Positions 1,818 to 9,328 of a stretch of DNA of 11,223 nt are shown here, piece after piece. Within the stretch, counting starts at the first letter, position 1. Each line of letters opens with the position of its first letter. A program made the position numbers and the translations under genes. The DNA lies in assembly GCA_039000165.1 (NCBI GenBank), contig JAWBTW010000020.1, forward strand, positions 1 to 11,223, written 5' to 3'. This DNA is from Candidatus Aenigmatarchaeota archaeon (lineage in GTDB: Archaea; Aenigmatarchaeota; Aenigmatarchaeia; CG10238-14; SCSR01). A model generated the notes under the pieces. That model did no database searches. It was not told the origin of the DNA and worked only from the letters and a program-made list of their open reading frames with translations.

Positions 1818-4712
1818 TCAAGAACAACAAGCATATATAGAATATTCAGCTCCTGTAGCGTCTGGAACTGAACCAAAAGGATTGGGGAAAGGATCAGCAT
1901 AATTGTGAGTGCGCCATTGACCAAAGCCTCCTCTTGGAATTGCTGTCAACATTCCACTAGTGTTAATCTTTATTGCTAAGAAATATTTTCCAGGTTGAAG
2001 CTGAGTGTCTGGAATGTCAAAAATGCACCACTCTCCAGCTTTACATTCTTGTTCACCACTTTGAATTATCAGATTGTTTGGGTTATGCTTAGTGAGATAC
2101 TGGTTTGGATTATAAATTGCGTCATAAATTGCAACCTTTGCTTTTCCTGCAGTGAACACATAAAGATAGATAGAGGAAACTGTTAATGTTTGGTTAACAT
2201 CGTAAGGTCCTGCTGTGTAGATATATGGGTTATAAGCTGTACCTTGATTCCCAGCCTCAGGATTTCCGAACAAGGGAGCAAAACCTATAAGAAATCTGTC
2301 AGTAGCTAAGTAAATCTTTTGCTCGCTTGAGTTGTAAAACCATTTATTACTTTTAACTTCTTCCAAAGAATAAACCTTTTCCAAAGCAGTTCCATTTTTT
2401 GTTACTTGCTTAGGATTTCTTCCCATGAATAAAACCTCAACAAACTGAGGGTTAAAGTTTGATTTGTTAGTATTTATTCCAAGAATTATTCTGTTTTCCT
2501 CCTTTACTAGGTAACTTATTGGTTCAGACAAATCGTAACTTAAATCCATGTTTTTAAGTTTAATGGAAAGTTGAGTTAAGTTAAACTCTATGTCATAAAT
2601 TCCCGAAGGAATGAAAAAATAGTAGTTTCCTTGAGAATCTGTTCGATTGAAAGAAATTAGGTTATCGGTTCCTTTTTCATAGATTTTGATTAAAGCTTCA
2701 ACTGGCCTATCGTTCTTGTCTTTTAATTTTCCAGAAAAAATTGACTTTGGCTTAACATGAACATACTTAAATTCTAGATGAGTTTTCCATGGTTCGTTTC
2801 CAAAATCAGCTTTTGCAGCAATCATAAACCTATTGTCAACGTTATAATTTCTCAAGTTAGATTTAACTGTAAAACTTATTTTTTTGGTTTCAGAAGGAGC
2901 TAAGTTAATAATAGCATTAGGAGCTGAGATAAATTGCCAGCCAGGAGTGTTGTTTAATAAATAAACATTAACTGGTAATGAATTAGAACCAAGGTTTGTT
3001 ACTGTTATATTCCCAGTAAAGGTATCTAGATAGTAAATTTCATCAGGAGTTTCTATGCTTAAATTAATAGGAATCCTTCCTGCTTTTACTCTTAAGTCAG
3101 AAGCTGCTGCTCCTCCTGCTATTGCGTATTCCACCCCTGAGTAAGGAGAAGTAAAACCACTTCGCCAAGTTACTCCCATTGCTCTCCAAATGTCGTGCCA
3201 AAAGATTCCAGGAATTGTACCATCTTTGTACATTTTTTCTCCACTATACATCATTCTATTATACATATCAACAGGTGCAGGGGGATTTCTATACCTTTGA
3301 TAACTACAATTTTGATAAGCATAATCTTGAACTATTTGACCAGGAACAACATTTGGAAGTTTCTCGAATGTTAATTCTTTTCCCCAAGGATCTATTACAG
3401 CATTTTCGTACCAACATCTTTTATTTTGTGAAATTCCTGAAGGTGAATAGTAGGTCATAGGAGCTATTATATCAATGCCAGCATCATTAAATACGAAAGG
3501 GTCATGACCATTACTTCTTCCCAAGTAAGAAGACCAAGTAAACATGAAAAAAGATCCTGAAAAATTTGATTCATCAACAATTCTTTTAAGACTTCTTGCA
3601 TAATTATAAGCCATCCATCTGTCCCATATTTCCTTAAGCGTGGAATTGTACTCACCACAACCAGAAGTTATTCTTTTACCAACCCACTTCATCTTTTCCT
3701 CTACTGAATAATTATCCCAATCAGAAGGAACATTTATATTCATTTTTCTTACAAACTCGTCATTCACAAGTCTTAAATCAACAGAACCTTCTGGTTCCCA
3801 GTCAAAACCTATTGTGCTAACTTTATCGTTAGTTTTAAGAATTTCTATTAGTTTTAAAGTACTTTCGATTGCTCTTTCGTCAGTCACACTAATTTCACCA
3901 GTAACATTTATTAATTGTCCATTACTACAATCGTACTTTAAACTCCAGTTGTATTCGATACCAAAATTTTGCTTAGCCAAATCAGCAGGAGCTACGTTAT
4001 AAGGCCAAAGCCAAGGAGCACAAGTAAAACCTGAATTGTTTGCTTCCTGACAGTATTCTCTAAAGTGCCAATAGGTTAGAGAACACCATGGGAATGACAT
4101 GTTTACTGGAGCGTAACGATTACAACCGCTCCAACCTGCTCTATATCCTACAGTAGGCCAGACAGAATCTGCGCCCATAAATTTAGCCCATCTATAAATG
4201 TTTAACCAACTTTTAGATTCGTTGTAAGGACCAGGAATTTGAAAAGAGGAATGAGTAGCAACATCTTCTACTTCTTCGGCCGTCATAGCTAAATAGCCAG
4301 GAGGTATAATTTCTTTTGGTTTTCTCATACTAATGTTAAAGATAGTTGAATTTGTGTAAATTGTTCCAGAAACATTGGCAGTAATGTTTAAAGTATATTC
4401 TCCCAACTCACGGTTCCAAGGAATTGGCCAATAGCCATACCAAAGGTTGTCTGAAGAATTGTAGTATAGATTTACGTTTTGTATGTTTCCTACTGTTGTT
4501 ACTAAACCTCCTGTTGAATTATAAATTCTTGCTATAAGGGCAGTAGAAGAATTTGTAATTGGGTTACCGTTTTGGGTTAGATTGACTTTAAAAGAAACTA
4601 TTTCATACCTCAAAAAAGAAGGTTTTTCTAGGATTATGGTAAAAGTAGAAGGTTGGGCACTAACAATCGGAAATATTAATAAAAAGAAAATGAGAATCAG
4701 AATTTTCTTCAT
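1818..4712 (-). CDS. Large secreted multidomain glycoprotein (964 aa), putative TIM-barrel glycoside hydrolase with Ig-like/beta-sandwich accessory domains
   Basis: Sec signal peptide MKKILILIFFLLIFPIVSA|QP. Beta-rich N-terminal domain (aa ~20-130). Trp/Tyr-rich alpha/beta core (aa ~135-545) with IGFDWE (D304/E306) and GIDIIAPMTY. CARDB/NEW3-like Ig domain (NITVTNLG..NLAPSETKKISFTV). Carboxypeptidase-regulatory-like domain (SGKLKDKNDRPV..TDSQGNYYF..PSGIYDI). C-terminal beta domains. More than 20 N-x-S/T sequons. The CDS itself is near certain; the function is inferred. Confidence 0.6.
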   Translation of the reverse strand: MKKILILIFFLLIFPIVSAQPSTFTIILEKPSFLRYEIVSFKVNLTQNGNPITNSSTALIARIYNSTGGLVTTVGNIQNVNLYYNSSDNLWYGYWPIPWNRELGEYTLNITANVSGTIYTNSTIFNISMRKPKEIIPPGYLAMTAEEVEDVATHSSFQIPGPYNESKSWLNIYRWAKFMGADSVWPTVGYRAGWSGCNRYAPVNMSFPWCSLTYWHFREYCQEANNSGFTCAPWLWPYNVAPADLAKQNFGIEYNWSLKYDCSNGQLINVTGEISVTDERAIESTLKLIEILKTNDKVSTIGFDWEPEGSVDLRLVNDEFVRKMNINVPSDWDNYSVEEKMKWVGKRITSGCGEYNSTLKEIWDRWMAYNYARSLKRIVDESNFSGSFFMFTWSSYLGRSNGHDPFVFNDAGIDIIAPMTYYSPSGISQNKRCWYENAVIDPWGKELTFEKLPNVVPGQIVQDYAYQNCSYQRYRNPPAPVDMYNRMMYSGEKMYKDGTIPGIFWHDIWRAMGVTWRSGFTSPYSGVEYAIAGGAAASDLRVKAGRIPINLSIETPDEIYYLDTFTGNITVTNLGSNSLPVNVYLLNNTPGWQFISAPNAIINLAPSETKKISFTVKSNLRNYNVDNRFMIAAKADFGNEPWKTHLEFKYVHVKPKSIFSGKLKDKNDRPVEALIKIYEKGTDNLISFNRTDSQGNYYFFIPSGIYDIEFNLTQLSIKLKNMDLSYDLSEPISYLVKEENRIILGINTNKSNFNPQFVEVLFMGRNPKQVTKNGTALEKVYSLEEVKSNKWFYNSSEQKIYLATDRFLIGFAPLFGNPEAGNQGTAYNPYIYTAGPYDVNQTLTVSSIYLYVFTAGKAKVAIYDAIYNPNQYLTKHNPNNLIIQSGEQECKAGEWCIFDIPDTQLQPGKYFLAIKINTSGMLTAIPRGGFGQWRTHNYADPFPNPFGSVPDATGAEYSIYACCS

Positions 4713-5291: not shown

Positions 5292-5324
5292 ATAATTAAT
5301 TTAAACAACAAAATAATTTATATG
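5289..5324. promoter_or_regulatory. Compact divergent promoter region between the GNAT and HPF-like genes
   Basis: Only 30 nt separate the two start codons (5291 on -, 5322 on +). TATA-like TATAATTA (5291-5298, +) and TATAAATT (5322-5315, -) each lie 24-31 nt upstream of the ATG they face, consistent with leaderless archaeal transcripts. Confidence 0.5.
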
Positions 5325-5666
5325 GCAACAGTTGAAATTTCTCACGCTATCCTGCCAGAAAAGCTTGAGATTCAGGAAGAAGTTAAAAAGTTTTTGGAAA
5401 AATTTGAAGAAAGATGGAAAATCTCTAGCTTCAAGCTTGATGTTAGAACTTACAGCCCAGGAGGAAGAAAGAAGTATTCATTTCATGCAAAAGTTGTTGC
5501 TAGCGACAAAATTTTTATAGCAAAGGCAAGCTCCTGGGATATCCCTTCAACATTAAGCATTCTTTTAAAAAAGTTGGAAAGGGAAATAGGAAAAAAATTG
5601 AAGAAAGAAAGGCTGAAGAAAATTTCCACTGCAAGGAAAATTTTGATGAAATCCCTAGAGGCTTAA
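5322..5666 (+). CDS. Stand-alone HPF/RaiA-fold (ribosome hibernation factor-like) protein, 114 aa
   Basis: Start reassigned from TTG 5271, which overlaps the GNAT start, to ATG 5322. MATVEISHA..EIQEEVKKFLEKFEE..SFKLDVRTY..GRKKYSFHAKV..IFIAKASSWDIPSTLSILLKKLEREIGKKLKKE follows the beta-alpha-beta-beta-beta-alpha HPF order. The A.a.xxD....l..KLE.+i.K pattern parallels HPF (A.a...DmyaAid...dKLerQl.k). Confidence 0.7.
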   Translation: MATVEISHAILPEKLEIQEEVKKFLEKFEERWKISSFKLDVRTYSPGGRKKYSFHAKVVASDKIFIAKASSWDIPSTLSILLKKLEREIGKKLKKERLKKISTARKILMKSLEA

Positions 5667-6395
5667 TTCCTTAATTCTTCCGAAGTTTAAAGCTCCTGTC
5701 TCTTTATCTAAAGCTATAGCTGAAAGGTTTTCAAAATCAACATCTTCTCTTAAAATTGGTGAAAGCAATTCCTCTTTTGAAATTGCGTTTATTTCAACCC
5801 CAGAAGCTAAGGGAGAAAAAGCAGGCAAGCAAATGAAATTTTTTCCCTTTTTTGTTTTTCCATAAAGCAAGCAAGGAACTTTTATTCTATCAAAACCTTT
5901 CCTCAAAATTAAAGCAGGCTGCTCATGACCAATAATCAAAACTTCCATTTCTTTAGGAAAATCTATTTTTTTATGCCCATGAGCAAACAAAATTCCTTGG
6001 GAAAAGTAAAAAGGTTGAAAAACTTTTAGCTCAAGCTTGCTCGCTATGGTAAGCAAATAGTTGTCATGATTTCCTCTTACCAAAACTATTTCCTCAACTT
6101 TTTTTCTCAAGAAATTTACCAAATCCTTTACTTCCCTCCATTCTTGTTGTGAAGCTTCTCCAAACTCATGCTTTAGATCGCCATTTATTATTACCTTTTT
6201 AGCTTTTGTTTCTCTTAGAATTTCTTTCAAATCAGCTTTCATTTCTTTTAGCTGGAATTGAGGAACAAAGATTCCCTGCTCAGCCAAATAAAGCTCTTCT
6301 CCTAGTTGTAAATCAGAAATAGCTATAGCTTTAAGCTTTTCTATATAAATTGCTCTAAACCCATTTACAGTGAAAATTCCTTCAAAAATTTCCAT
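5655..6395 (-). CDS. Calcineurin-like metallophosphoesterase (Lhr-associated MPE, COG1407-type) with variant metal site
   Basis: Motifs ISDLQLG, INGDLKHEF, VRGNHD, FAHGH, IGHEQP and LPAFSPL, plus co-location with lhr, a known pairing. The 3' end overlaps the convergent HPF-like gene by 12 nt. Confidence 0.9.
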   Translation of the reverse strand: MEIFEGIFTVNGFRAIYIEKLKAIAISDLQLGEELYLAEQGIFVPQFQLKEMKADLKEILRETKAKKVIINGDLKHEFGEASQQEWREVKDLVNFLRKKVEEIVLVRGNHDNYLLTIASKLELKVFQPFYFSQGILFAHGHKKIDFPKEMEVLIIGHEQPALILRKGFDRIKVPCLLYGKTKKGKNFICLPAFSPLASGVEINAISKEELLSPILREDVDFENLSAIALDKETGALNFGRIKELSL

Positions 6396-6396
6396 C

Positions 6397-6564
6397 TTAT
6401 CTTTCCTCTAAATAAATCACAGCATCTTTATGAATGTACTTAATTTTTCCTTTAGTTTCTAGAGCTATCCACTTATCAACTTCTTTCAAAATTCCTTCTA
6501 GAGGAATTGTTGTGTCACCCATCGCTATTATTATTCTGACTTTTTTGCCAATTAGCTCTTTCAT
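6397..6564 (-). CDS. Small Sm/Lsm/Hfq-fold-like protein (55 aa), missing from the ORF track
   Basis: MKELIGKKVRIIIAMGDTTIPLEGILKEVDKWIALETKGKIKYIHKDAVIYLEER, ATG at 6564, TAA at 6399-6397. It fills the lhr-MPE gap, starting 5 nt after the lhr stop and ending 1 nt before the MPE ATG. An in-frame GTG at 6573 overlaps the lhr stop. Sm1-like LIGKKVRI...G.L..VD and Sm2/Hfq-like YIHKDAVIYLE. The CDS is more certain than the fold. Confidence 0.8.
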   Translation of the reverse strand: MKELIGKKVRIIIAMGDTTIPLEGILKEVDKWIALETKGKIKYIHKDAVIYLEER

Positions 6565-6569
6565 TCCAC

Positions 6570-9278
6570 TCACTCTAAACTTTTAACCTTTTCCATAACT
6601 TTTTTGTGTAGCTCCAATAATAATTTTTTCCTGTCTTCCATTAAAACTACGTCGCTTTCACCAAGAGCTATTAGTGAATGAGAGAAAGGACTTGGAACAT
6701 TACTTTCAGGTAAAAATTCATACTTTATTCTTCCTTTTTCCACTTGCTCCAAAACCCATTTTGCATGCTCTAAATCCATAAAATCTTGCATTACTTCACG
6801 ATAAGTTTCTTCCACAACAGGAAAATTTTCAAATTTCTCGCAAACTCTTAGCAAGCGATCAGCATTCATTTGTTGCCTAGCAACTTTAATCTCATAACCT
6901 TTATAATTTCTCAGAATCATCAAGCTTCGAGTAGCACAATGCCTGAAACGCCTTTTTATCAGCTCTGTTTGTCTTAAAGCTTTTCTCAAAACTTCTTCAA
7001 GCTCAGAAGATTTTAACAGCTTAACTAACTCCTTAGGATTAACCCTTTCTTCCTCTCTTCTCTTTATTTTTGCTTTTAAAGTTATCAAATCGAGCCACTC
7101 GCTTCCTATGCTTTCTGAAGGAATAGAAATAACAAAACCGTTATCGCTAACCGTTAAGCCTACAGATTTTTTAATCTTTTTTGTTAGCAAATAGCCAAAT
7201 GCTCGAGATAAAGCGTCGTTTATTCTTCTTCCGAACAAAGTGTGAAAAATTATGTTTTGGTTTCCTTTTTCATCGATATAATTTTCGATTAAAATTGTTT
7301 TTTCGTCAGGAAAATTCTTTGCTCCTAGCGATTTAAGGAATTTGTATTCCCAGAGAAAGTATTCATAAATTGAATTTGCACTCCACTCGTCAAGATAATA
7401 ATTTTTTAATAGCCATTTTACTACTTCTTCCTTGCTTTTGTTTTTTACTAGCTTGAACATTTTTCCTCTAAACTCTTGAATTTTTAGAGCAAGCTCAAAG
7501 CTTAGAGGAAGCATTTCTGAAAACCAGGCAGGAACTGTAGGTCTTTTTTCTTTTACTGGTTTAACAAAAGCAGTCACTTGCTTTGCTTTAATAAATTCAT
7601 AAGTTTTTCCTGCTAAAACAAAAATATCTCCTGGCAAAAGCCTTTGCAAGAATTCTTCCTCTATTGAACCAATATATCTTCCATCCAAACTTCTAACTTT
7701 TATTTTCACTTCATCTGGTATTGTTCCTATATTTAAAGAGTAAATTACCCTTGCATATTTTCCTCTTCTCCCGAACATCATATCTTTAGGATCAAACCAG
7801 ATTTTTGCATAAACTTTTTTATCTTCTAGAGTATGGTAAGCTCCTGCTAAAAATTCTAAAACAGAAAGAAAATCCTCCCATTTCAAGTTTCTGTAGCAAT
7901 AAGAGTTTCTTATAAGGTTAAAAGCTTCCTTTACATTCCATTTCTTTTCCAAACTCATTCCCATCAAGTGCTGAGCTAAAACGTCAAGACAATTTTCTGG
8001 GATTTGGATTTTGTCTAAGAAGTAGCGATAAGCTTGCTGAATCATTACTGCACATTCTACCAGATCATCCCTATCCATGCAAATTATTCTTCCTTTTGAA
8101 ACTTCGTGCAAGCGATGGCCTGCCCTTCCTATTCTTTGAATGCATCTTGTAATGCTTTTTGGGCTTCCAAGCTGGCAAACTAAATCTATGTAACCTATAT
8201 CTATCCCTAATTCAAGACTTGTGCTTGAAACCACAACTTTTAACTTTCCGTTCTTAAGTTTATCCTCTATTTCTAGCCTTATTTCACGAGAAACTGAGCT
8301 GTGATGGGCTCCTATTTGCTCGTCTGTATAGACTTCTGGAAACATTTGCTTTAAGTGATGCACGCATCTTTCAGTTCCGCTTCTTGTATTTGTGAAAACT
8401 AGGGTAGTGCGATGCTGTTGAATTAACTTATCTAAAAGCTTGTACATGCTATTCGTTATGGTTTCAGCTTGTGTGTAAACTAAGTCTTTTACTGGAGAAA
8501 GAAGTTTTATGTCTAAAGGTTTAACAAATCTTGCGTCTATTATTTTACAATTTCTCTCTTTTCCGTTTTCATAACCAACTAAAAACTTTGCAACTTCAAT
8601 CAAAGGTTCGAGCGTAGCTCCCATACCTATTCTTACAAAGGGCTTTCCAACAAAATTTTGAAGTCTTTCTAAGCTTAAGCTTAAATGTACTCCACGCTTA
8701 GAATTAGCTAATTCATGAATCTCATCAACTATAACCCATCTTACTTTTTTAAATTTTTCTTTAAACTTTCTTGTCGACAAAACTATTGCTATGGTTTCAG
8801 GCGTAGTTACGAGAATGTGAGGCGGAAGCCTAAGCTGCTTTTGCTTTTCATGAGGCGAAACATCTCCCGTTCTTACTGCAATCCTAACTTCAGGTAATTC
8901 TATTCCCATTTCTTTTGCTATTTCTCTTATTTCTTTCAAAGGAATTATTAGGTTTTTGAGTATGTCGTTATCTAAAGCTCTGAGGGGAGAAATGTAAACA
9001 CAATAAACAACATCTTCTAATTCCTTCTTTTCTCCAAGGATAAAAAGCTCATCAATTATCGCCAAAAAAGAGCTTAAAGTTTTGCCTATTCCTGTTGGGG
9101 CAGTAATCAAAACATTTTCTCCTTTTTTTATTAAAGGGATGGAAAACTTTTGTGGCAAGGTTAATTGCTTAAAATTTCTTTTAAACCATTCTCTAACATA
9201 AGGTCTAAGTAAAGCTAAAACTTTCTCATCTTTCGGCAATTTTTTCGTGTTAACAAAGCCTATCATGGAAACGCGCAT
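6570..9278 (-). CDS. lhr: ATP-dependent SF2 helicase Lhr (archaeal Lhr2/Lhr-core type), about 900 aa
   Basis: Q motif LTLPQ, Walker A APTGIGKT, YISPLRAL, VRTGD, ILVTTPE, DEIH, FTNTRS, AHHSS, STSLELGIDIG, QRIGRAGH, winged-helix LDVLAQH, NIGTIPDE, P.WFSE, RRFRHCA.RSLMILRNY and C-terminal PSPFSH. Alternative start at ATG 9266. No intein-sized insertion. Confidence 0.96.
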   Translation of the reverse strand: MRVSMIGFVNTKKLPKDEKVLALLRPYVREWFKRNFKQLTLPQKFSIPLIKKGENVLITAPTGIGKTLSSFLAIIDELFILGEKKELEDVVYCVYISPLRALDNDILKNLIIPLKEIREIAKEMGIELPEVRIAVRTGDVSPHEKQKQLRLPPHILVTTPETIAIVLSTRKFKEKFKKVRWVIVDEIHELANSKRGVHLSLSLERLQNFVGKPFVRIGMGATLEPLIEVAKFLVGYENGKERNCKIIDARFVKPLDIKLLSPVKDLVYTQAETITNSMYKLLDKLIQQHRTTLVFTNTRSGTERCVHHLKQMFPEVYTDEQIGAHHSSVSREIRLEIEDKLKNGKLKVVVSSTSLELGIDIGYIDLVCQLGSPKSITRCIQRIGRAGHRLHEVSKGRIICMDRDDLVECAVMIQQAYRYFLDKIQIPENCLDVLAQHLMGMSLEKKWNVKEAFNLIRNSYCYRNLKWEDFLSVLEFLAGAYHTLEDKKVYAKIWFDPKDMMFGRRGKYARVIYSLNIGTIPDEVKIKVRSLDGRYIGSIEEEFLQRLLPGDIFVLAGKTYEFIKAKQVTAFVKPVKEKRPTVPAWFSEMLPLSFELALKIQEFRGKMFKLVKNKSKEEVVKWLLKNYYLDEWSANSIYEYFLWEYKFLKSLGAKNFPDEKTILIENYIDEKGNQNIIFHTLFGRRINDALSRAFGYLLTKKIKKSVGLTVSDNGFVISIPSESIGSEWLDLITLKAKIKRREEERVNPKELVKLLKSSELEEVLRKALRQTELIKRRFRHCATRSLMILRNYKGYEIKVARQQMNADRLLRVCEKFENFPVVEETYREVMQDFMDLEHAKWVLEQVEKGRIKYEFLPESNVPSPFSHSLIALGESDVVLMEDRKKLLLELHKKVMEKVKSLE

Positions 9279-9328
9279 ATTATATGAGAAAAAGAAAAGA
9301 TAAAGTTTACTGTTTTCTTATAGTAATC
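9279..9328. promoter_or_regulatory. Divergent promoter region between lhr and the radical SAM operon
   Basis: About 50-60 nt between divergent starts. It contains the imperfect palindrome AAGAAAA-GA-TAAA-G-TTTA-CTG-TTTTCTT (9292-9319), with BRE-like AGAAAA followed by an AT-rich box on each strand. Confidence 0.45.

Follow-up and report, generated by a model that had tools for sequence, protein, structure and literature searches.

What is a gene for a 55-amino-acid (aa) protein with a predicted Sm/Hfq fold doing between the genes of an Lhr-type helicase and a metallophosphoesterase (MPE)? The arrangement is found in an 11,223-nt stretch of Candidatus Aenigmatarchaeota DNA (the window), which is contig C20 of a 783-kb genome assembled in 25 contigs and 91.6% complete (G000). 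A model that read the letters of this DNA (the sequence-only reading) had proposed a new three-component system that processes RNA or R-loops, in which a small Sm-like ring bridges the substrate, the helicase and an MPE of altered chemistry. The analysis reported here leads to a more modest answer. What the window shows is a known two-gene repair module in a variant that is real, conserved and restricted to one clade, with the small gene as a plausible but non-obligate partner of the nuclease. The explanation we put first, tentatively and with somewhat less than even confidence, is that a known archaeal pair of an aLhr2-type Lhr and a TIGR00024-type MPE carries a family-restricted Sm-fold insert that serves as a facultative accessory of the nuclease.

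The three genes lie on the same strand and are closely packed (coordinates in Table 1). The small open reading frame (ORF) was listed with a GTG start at 6573, but its homologues all begin with MKEL, and the start was therefore placed at ATG 6564, which gives a product of 55 aa. With this start, the spacer between the Lhr stop codon (TGA, 6570–6572) and the small gene is 5 nt, and that between the small-gene stop codon (TAA, 6397–6399) and the MPE start (ATG 6395) is 1 nt; the coordinates and gaps in the sequence-only reading were correct. Translational coupling of the small gene and MPE is suggested by the 1-nt spacer and by a Shine-Dalgarno-like GAGG that lies within the small gene at its 3' end. 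A 752-nt contig with 67 differences spans 6369–7115 and reaches from the start of MPE across the whole small gene into the 3' end of Lhr (X15, one of two libraries compared that are labelled metatranscriptomic but flagged as probably DNA); it cannot show a single transcript.

The order Lhr–small–MPE was found in 12 of the 14 genomes that hold the small gene (G000, G001, G005, G060, G062, G024, G092, G094, G095, G097, G099 and G100), and synteny in relatives, which the sequence-only reading had put forward as a check, is thus borne out. In metagenomes, Lhr or its 3' end lies upstream of the small gene at all 15 loci, and MPE follows the small gene at 13, the other two stopping at a contig edge; several of these loci are near-identical to triad genomes and are not independent of them. 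The two junctions differ in tightness. The small gene and MPE are separated by 4 nt or less, or overlap, at every locus where both are visible (25/25). The distance from Lhr to the small gene is –29 to +5 nt at 18 of 26 loci, 265 nt at one (G005, with a 90-aa ORF between) and 838–1222 nt at seven, all of them metagenomic. At the two wide-spaced loci that were read, an opposite-strand nucleotidyltransferase gene and a second gene stand between Lhr and the small gene. Since the small gene always abuts MPE while Lhr can be set apart, the invariant unit is small–MPE and not Lhr–small. The inserted cassette itself (L106 3046–3866; L108 2816–3867) comprises a 189-aa nucleotidyltransferase (PF01909/PF18765) and a 161-aa gene (84 aa in L106) without a Pfam match, and may be a toxin–antitoxin-like pair.

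In alignment A1, the homologues of the small protein have identities of 53–98% and 14 invariant residues, and pairwise dN/dS values range from 0.06 to 0.34, mostly 0.07–0.2, at saturated dS. The small ORF is a real gene under purifying selection. An AlphaFold2 model built from 15 sequences (predicted local distance difference test score, pLDDT, 86.5) has a helix at residues 2–4 and strands at 8–15, 18–29, 32–37, 40–45 and 49–54. The predicted protein shares its size, the N-terminal helix and the five-stranded bent sheet with Hfq, the Hfq-like protein of M. jannaschii (2qtx) and archaeal SmAPs. When the model was compared with the PDB by Foldseek, these same proteins (Hfq, M. jannaschii Hfq-like, SmAP) were the top matches, at template-modelling (TM) scores of 0.69–0.84 but E-values of only 0.01. 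VIA-align against 48,161 chains placed 2qtx first (Z 9.0, root-mean-square deviation 1.1 Å, 51 residues aligned), with further Hfq and Sm proteins ranking below it and Hfq/Sm entries dominating the top rows.

No sequence match to the PDB was found at E ≤ 10, and the window protein matched neither Pfam LSM (PF01423) nor Hfq (PF17209) at E ≤ 0.01. Hfq scores, all below threshold, appeared in relatives alone (at most 20 bits against a cut-off of 27), and some relatives gave weak Hfq, Rpp29 or RimP-SH3 matches. "Sm-like", the term of the sequence-only reading, therefore stands for the modelled fold but not for membership of the Sm or Hfq families. The best Pfam match of the window protein is DUF6897 (PF21838), at 22.7 bits just below the gathering cut-off of 23.9. 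Among 12 relatives scanned, two pass that cut-off (27.0 and 29.0 bits), seven are sub-threshold and three have no match. The nearest ESM Atlas cluster consists to 95% of DUF6897 members ("MM0924 family", Methanobacteriota; score 0.92, 189 shared features). No mention of DUF6897 was found in the literature. Some sources label relatives of the small protein "RNase P/MRP subunit p29"; this label was rejected, the best PF01868 score among relatives being 15.9 bits against 27, and the genome's true Rpp29 is encoded at C1:67466–67717 (100.2 bits). A role as stand-in for a missing SmAP was likewise rejected, as the genome has a canonical SmAP. With an SmAP and an Rpp29 of its own, the genome holds the small protein as an extra Sm-fold protein.

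On the explanation we favour, a small-barrel gene (55 aa, Sm/Hfq fold) would have been inserted directly before the MPE gene in one family-level lineage, and small–MPE would then have been kept as a tightly coupled bicistronic unit, usually with Lhr abutting upstream. The small protein would most likely be a single-strand nucleic-acid-binding accessory, made together with MPE, that helps or modulates the MPE nuclease in DNA-damage processing. It would be facultative and would not be needed to link helicase and nuclease. In genus g20 (L074 18–2257; L075 2573–4848), genes for a UDG (PF03167) and for the methylpurine-DNA glycosylase MPG (PF02245) lie just upstream of the operon in divergent orientation, which fits the usual DNA-repair reading of Lhr–MPE. 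A prediction of the complex, run without controls (Lhr residues 421–902 and MPE, with the small protein as partner, from alignments), returned no verdict (score 0.00) and weighs neither way.

We asked how far the small gene extends beyond the window. When 5.8 billion clusters were searched by word index, 13 proteins related to the small protein came back, and a profile search of 1.84 billion representatives of any length returned 9 clusters at E ≤ 1e-3. Two of these are long proteins in which the profile hits several short segments; P0021, the one of the two that was read, is a repeat. No form fused to Lhr or MPE was seen among the 1.84 billion representatives, and no relatives of the small gene were found in viral contigs. 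Within the order of the window, the gene is present in 14 of 118 genomes, all in family f1 (genera g1, g11, g15, g20 and g35). When PF21838 was run over 371 genomes of the phylum, it found members of family f1 and a single further gene, in G010; this profile is less sensitive than our custom small-protein profile and missed the g20 copies. The G010 gene (71 aa, DUF6897-like, 22.0 bits; L099 1465–1680) stands beside an integrase-like gene, a tyrosine recombinase as we read its sequence, which suggests a mobile-element context.

The history of the operon was followed through MPE. TIGR00024 is matched in 112 of the 118 genomes of the order, by two paralogues: a nearly universal one that scores about 100 bits, and an Lhr-linked one (type A) that exceeds the cut-off in 41 genomes. 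G000 has both; its second MPE (G000:C3:8352–8990; 105 bits on TIGR00024) is of the nearly universal type and has the canonical pair of histidines at the metal site considered below. In a quick maximum-likelihood tree of 41 unique MPEs, type A forms a clade (SH-aLRT 100). Operons with the small gene are found in two subclades (SH-aLRT 99 and 98). Both belong to a 15-row clade (support 93), which also contains a third subclade without the small gene. Because the triads are confined to two subclades of one clade, one or two gains suffice to account for them, and the 12 genomes should not be counted as so many independent observations. Genus g11 is divided: G062 (L069/L048) and G060 (L071) carry the window-type operon at 96–99% and 83–86% identity, respectively, and G061 and G063 carry a different version in which an MPE with both histidines directly follows Lhr. 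The window-type operons of g11 reflect either recent gene transfer or contig mis-binning.

Several observations weigh against a partnership of the small protein with the nuclease. The matches to the modelled fold are generic: small barrels such as the BirA C-domain, RimP and YaeO also reach Z 7–8 in VIA-align, and the predicted fold says little about function. The small gene occurs without a type-A Lhr or MPE in two genomes. In G093 (genus g20, 88% complete; G118, with identical coordinates, was taken as the same) it is intact and keeps all 14 invariant residues, in a locus ordered UDG, small gene, bPH_2, MiaB-like, with the same neighbourhood as in G024, including the MPG gene. What is left there of Lhr is about 38 nt of the 5' end, one 42-nt internal piece and the last ~20 nt, and of MPE a 69-nt piece and the last ~160 nt; otherwise G093 has only the second Lhr (36% identical) and the second MPE. 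The remnants are still 75–83% identical although dS is saturated; G093 may thus have lost the two genes recently, and it makes a weaker case for that reason. The copy in G019 (genus g15; genome 86% complete) is 55% identical, has an unknown gene on either side, with a HIT gene and rpl3/rpl4 nearby, and overlaps its downstream gene by 4 nt; a type-A Lhr or MPE was not found in this genome. The reverse also occurs. G004 (genus g1, 80% complete) has Lhr, a 271-aa alpha/beta hydrolase where the small gene would stand, and an MPE with the same metal-site replacements as the window MPE, and the small gene was not found in it. MPE directly follows Lhr, with no small gene, in six genomes (G104, G061, G063, G102, G026 and G025), and G042 carries a HAD hydrolase gene between the two. 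As the Lhr–MPE junction takes unrelated guests, position alone is weak evidence of partnership.

These observations leave room for the view that the small gene is a hitchhiker: an independent Sm-like RNA- or protein-binding factor with a job unrelated to Lhr and MPE, lodged by the compact packing of DPANN genomes at a junction that tolerates insertions. The retention of the small gene in G093 and G019 and of Lhr–MPE in G004, the unrelated guests at the junction (alpha/beta hydrolase, HAD hydrolase, nucleotidyltransferase cassette) and the distant DUF6897-like gene beside an integrase-like gene in G010 all speak for it, and we regard it as a serious possibility, if a rather doubtful one. Unlike the other guests, however, the small gene has been kept across at least four genera, and it stays within 4 nt of MPE or overlaps it at 25 of 25 loci even where Lhr has been split off. 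It is also under purifying selection in a genome whose canonical SmAP and Rpp29 leave no gap for it to fill.

The nuclease itself is clearly assigned (TIGR00024, 149.8 bits against a cut-off of 115.2; PF00149, 41.4 against 21.5). The introduction of PMC7826289 gives D33, H35, D78, N112, H124, H146 and H158 as the signature metal ligands of P. putida MPE, and the Results of that paper number the two Mn2 histidines His142 and His156; the protein ligands of Mn1 are described there as His35, His158, Asp33 and the bridging Asp78. In the alignment to 6NVO, the window MPE has Gln30 and Gln159 in place of P. putida His35 and His158. The full seven-ligand signature is thus absent from the window MPE, and both replaced positions are Mn1 ligands. 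At the remaining signature positions the alignment shows no change (D28, D73, H76, N109, H110, H141 and H157), H76 and H110 being the equivalents of P. putida H81 and H113. The sequence-only reading, which had called the phosphoesterase remodelled, was right in that both metal-1 histidines are replaced by glutamine.

The replacement is not peculiar to the window: its MPE is a member of a large clade in which the two Mn1 histidines have given way jointly to Q/Q or Q/E. Among the 41 unique MPEs of the order, the Mn1 pair is H/H in 14, Q/Q in 19 and Q/E in 8, and never mixed. In the best 120 database clusters it is Q/E in 56, Q/Q in 43, H/H in 18, H/T in one and H/Q in one, with one gap, and the other seven positions are invariant across these clusters. 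In sequence terms, the change is a concerted, conserved swap of two nitrogen donors for oxygen donors at one metal site, and it probably alters the metal preference of an active enzyme and does not mark decay. MPEs linked to the small gene are all Q/Q where both positions are visible (23/23), but 10 of the 19 unique Q/Q sequences have no small gene. The swap is older than the small gene and does not depend on it.

Lhr was examined in the same way. The window protein scores 1263.2 bits on NF010338 (cut-off 849), with the domain order PF00270 (DEAD), PF00271 (Helicase_C), PF19306 (WH_Lhr, 132 bits) and PF08494 (DEAD_assoc, domain 4, 198 bits). Its motifs are APTGIGKT (I), DEIHE (II), GAT (III) and QRIGRAGH (VI); in place of the canonical motif III S-A-T it has G-A-T, as the sequence-only reading had noted. 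The threonine changed in the T215A mutant of T. barophilus aLhr2 (PMC8301817) is kept in the window Lhr. Of the 22 Lhr sequences compared, 14 have GAT and the other 8, the genome's second Lhr among them, have SAT. All Lhr sequences read beside a small gene have GAT (10/10), but 4 of the 14 GAT sequences occur without it, and in three genomes (G042, G063 and G102) a GAT Lhr accompanies a canonical H/H MPE. The second Lhr of the genome (G000:C2:26436–28715) is 37% identical to that of the window. A much longer Lhr frame, of at least 1333–1398 aa, is seen in G100 and at two metagenome loci (L079 802–5001, L107 3–4001, L115 3–4001). Similarity of the G100/L079 Lhr begins at window-Lhr residue 351, and its RecA region has a large in-frame insertion, which may be an intein.

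These results bear on the obligate three-component module in which an Sm ring bridges an RNA or R-loop substrate, the GAT Lhr and an MPE whose Q/Q site has changed its chemistry. The tight triad in 12 of 14 genomes, the predicted Sm/Hfq fold and the uniform Q/Q and GAT states of the small-linked genes are what such a module would show. Both states, however, are features of the clade and are found in members that lack the small gene too, and shared ancestry explains the association; the co-occurrence expected by the sequence-only reading comes down to nested ancestry. Moreover, Lhr is physically uncoupled from small–MPE at 8 of 26 loci, the parts have been lost independently (G093, G019 and G004), and no fused forms were seen in the 1.84 billion representatives. 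Nothing points to RNA or R-loops as substrates, whereas the two DNA glycosylase genes that adjoin the g20 operon point to DNA repair. We consider the obligate module unlikely: of the proposed new three-component system, the triad is real, but its range is narrow, it comes apart in both directions, and Lhr is separable. Another reading, in which the small protein would be a dedicated cofactor of the remodelled MPE and form a ring that catches ssRNA or ssDNA tails and passes them to this Q/Q nuclease of altered metal chemistry, so that part of the Lhr–MPE repair pair would have become an RNA/R-loop unit in Aenigmatarchaeota, seems to us improbable. As for a spurious open frame in an intergenic spacer, the mere 55 codons and a window copy just under the Pfam cut-off could suggest it, but 53–98% identity with 14 invariant residues effectively refutes it, and dN/dS well below 1, a confident fold model and two relatives above the DUF6897 cut-off leave it almost no probability.

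The proposed facultative accessory can be set against systems already described. That Lhr–MPE pairs are known, as the sequence-only reading had stated, is confirmed by published two-gene clusters: Lhr-Core/MPE clusters in bacteria and archaea appear in PMC7826289, where work of Ejaz and Shuman is cited for them, and Hajj et al. (2021, PMC8301817) report that alhr2 of DPANN genomes has a phosphoesterase gene of the TIGR00024 type next to it. As these clusters are presented there, the window pair agrees with them in families, order and strand, but differs in the 55-aa Sm-fold gene between the two, in the glutamines at the Mn1 histidine positions and in the GAT of motif III. The ligase-associated DNA damage response cluster (Lhr, PdeM, ligase and exonuclease) is similar in that related helicase and phosphoesterase families match. 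Both scores are nevertheless sub-threshold (TIGR04121, 546 against 850; TIGR04123, PdeM, 94.8 against 150), and none of the ten window proteins scanned matched a ligase or exonuclease family. No description of an Lhr–Sm–MPE operon was found in the literature, although the gene neighbourhoods in Supplementary Figure S3 of PMC8301817 may include small intervening genes; here, too, the sequence-only reading stands.

Lhr–MPE is a widespread but poorly understood repair module for which no accessory subunit is known, and an Sm-fold gene set against the nuclease gene offers a concrete, testable candidate partner. The general importance of the small gene is limited, because it occurs in a single family of uncultured DPANN archaea and is demonstrably dispensable. 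Of all the results, the paired remodelling of metal site 1 in MPE lends itself best to reuse: the large Q/Q and Q/E series, with the rest of the site invariant, is a natural experiment on metal selectivity in binuclear metallophosphoesterases.

Table 1. Features at the Lhr–small–MPE locus (positions in the window)
Feature	Position	Strand	Remarks
Lhr-type SF2 helicase	6570–9278	minus	902 aa as called
Small Sm/Hfq-fold protein gene	6397–6564	minus	55 aa; start set by homologues
GAGG, Shine-Dalgarno-like	6405–6408	minus	10–13 nt before MPE ATG, within small-gene 3' end
MPE phosphoesterase, archaeal TIGR00024/COG1407 type	5655–6395	minus	246 aa
HPF/YfiA-fold ORF	5319–5666 (ATG 5319)	plus	115 aa; from model and fold matches

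The remaining features of the window lie around the operon. Scans with Rfam and for tRNAs found no RNA genes in the window, and a 964-aa ORF at 1818–4712 (minus strand) has no Pfam or NCBIfam match at E ≤ 0.01. At the 3' end, where the sequence-only reading had placed a putative hibernation factor, an ORF convergent with MPE overlaps its 3' end by 12 nt. The predicted fold agrees with this: the model (pLDDT 83.9) has 25 PDB matches at E ≤ 1e-3, all of them HPF/YfiA/pY-type ribosome-hibernation proteins, at TM scores of about 0.54–0.68. Profile hidden Markov models stay below threshold (PF02482, 17.6 against 23.7 bits; TIGR00741, 17.2 against 40.9). Being convergent on the plus strand, the ORF lies outside the operon. 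An HPF-like gene is present in 35 of the 118 genomes of the order and adjoins MPE in three alone (G000, G001 and G004), within genus g1. Weaker HPF-like matches sit within ORFs of about 360–390 aa.

At the other end of the operon, Lhr and a radical-SAM ORF diverge. In relatives, Lhr starts near an internal methionine of the window protein at ~9266 (comparison with locus L108), and the true start of the window Lhr may be this methionine, at about 9266. As called, the two divergent ORFs start 5 nt apart (9278–9284); their real starts, and a shared promoter region, probably lie further in.

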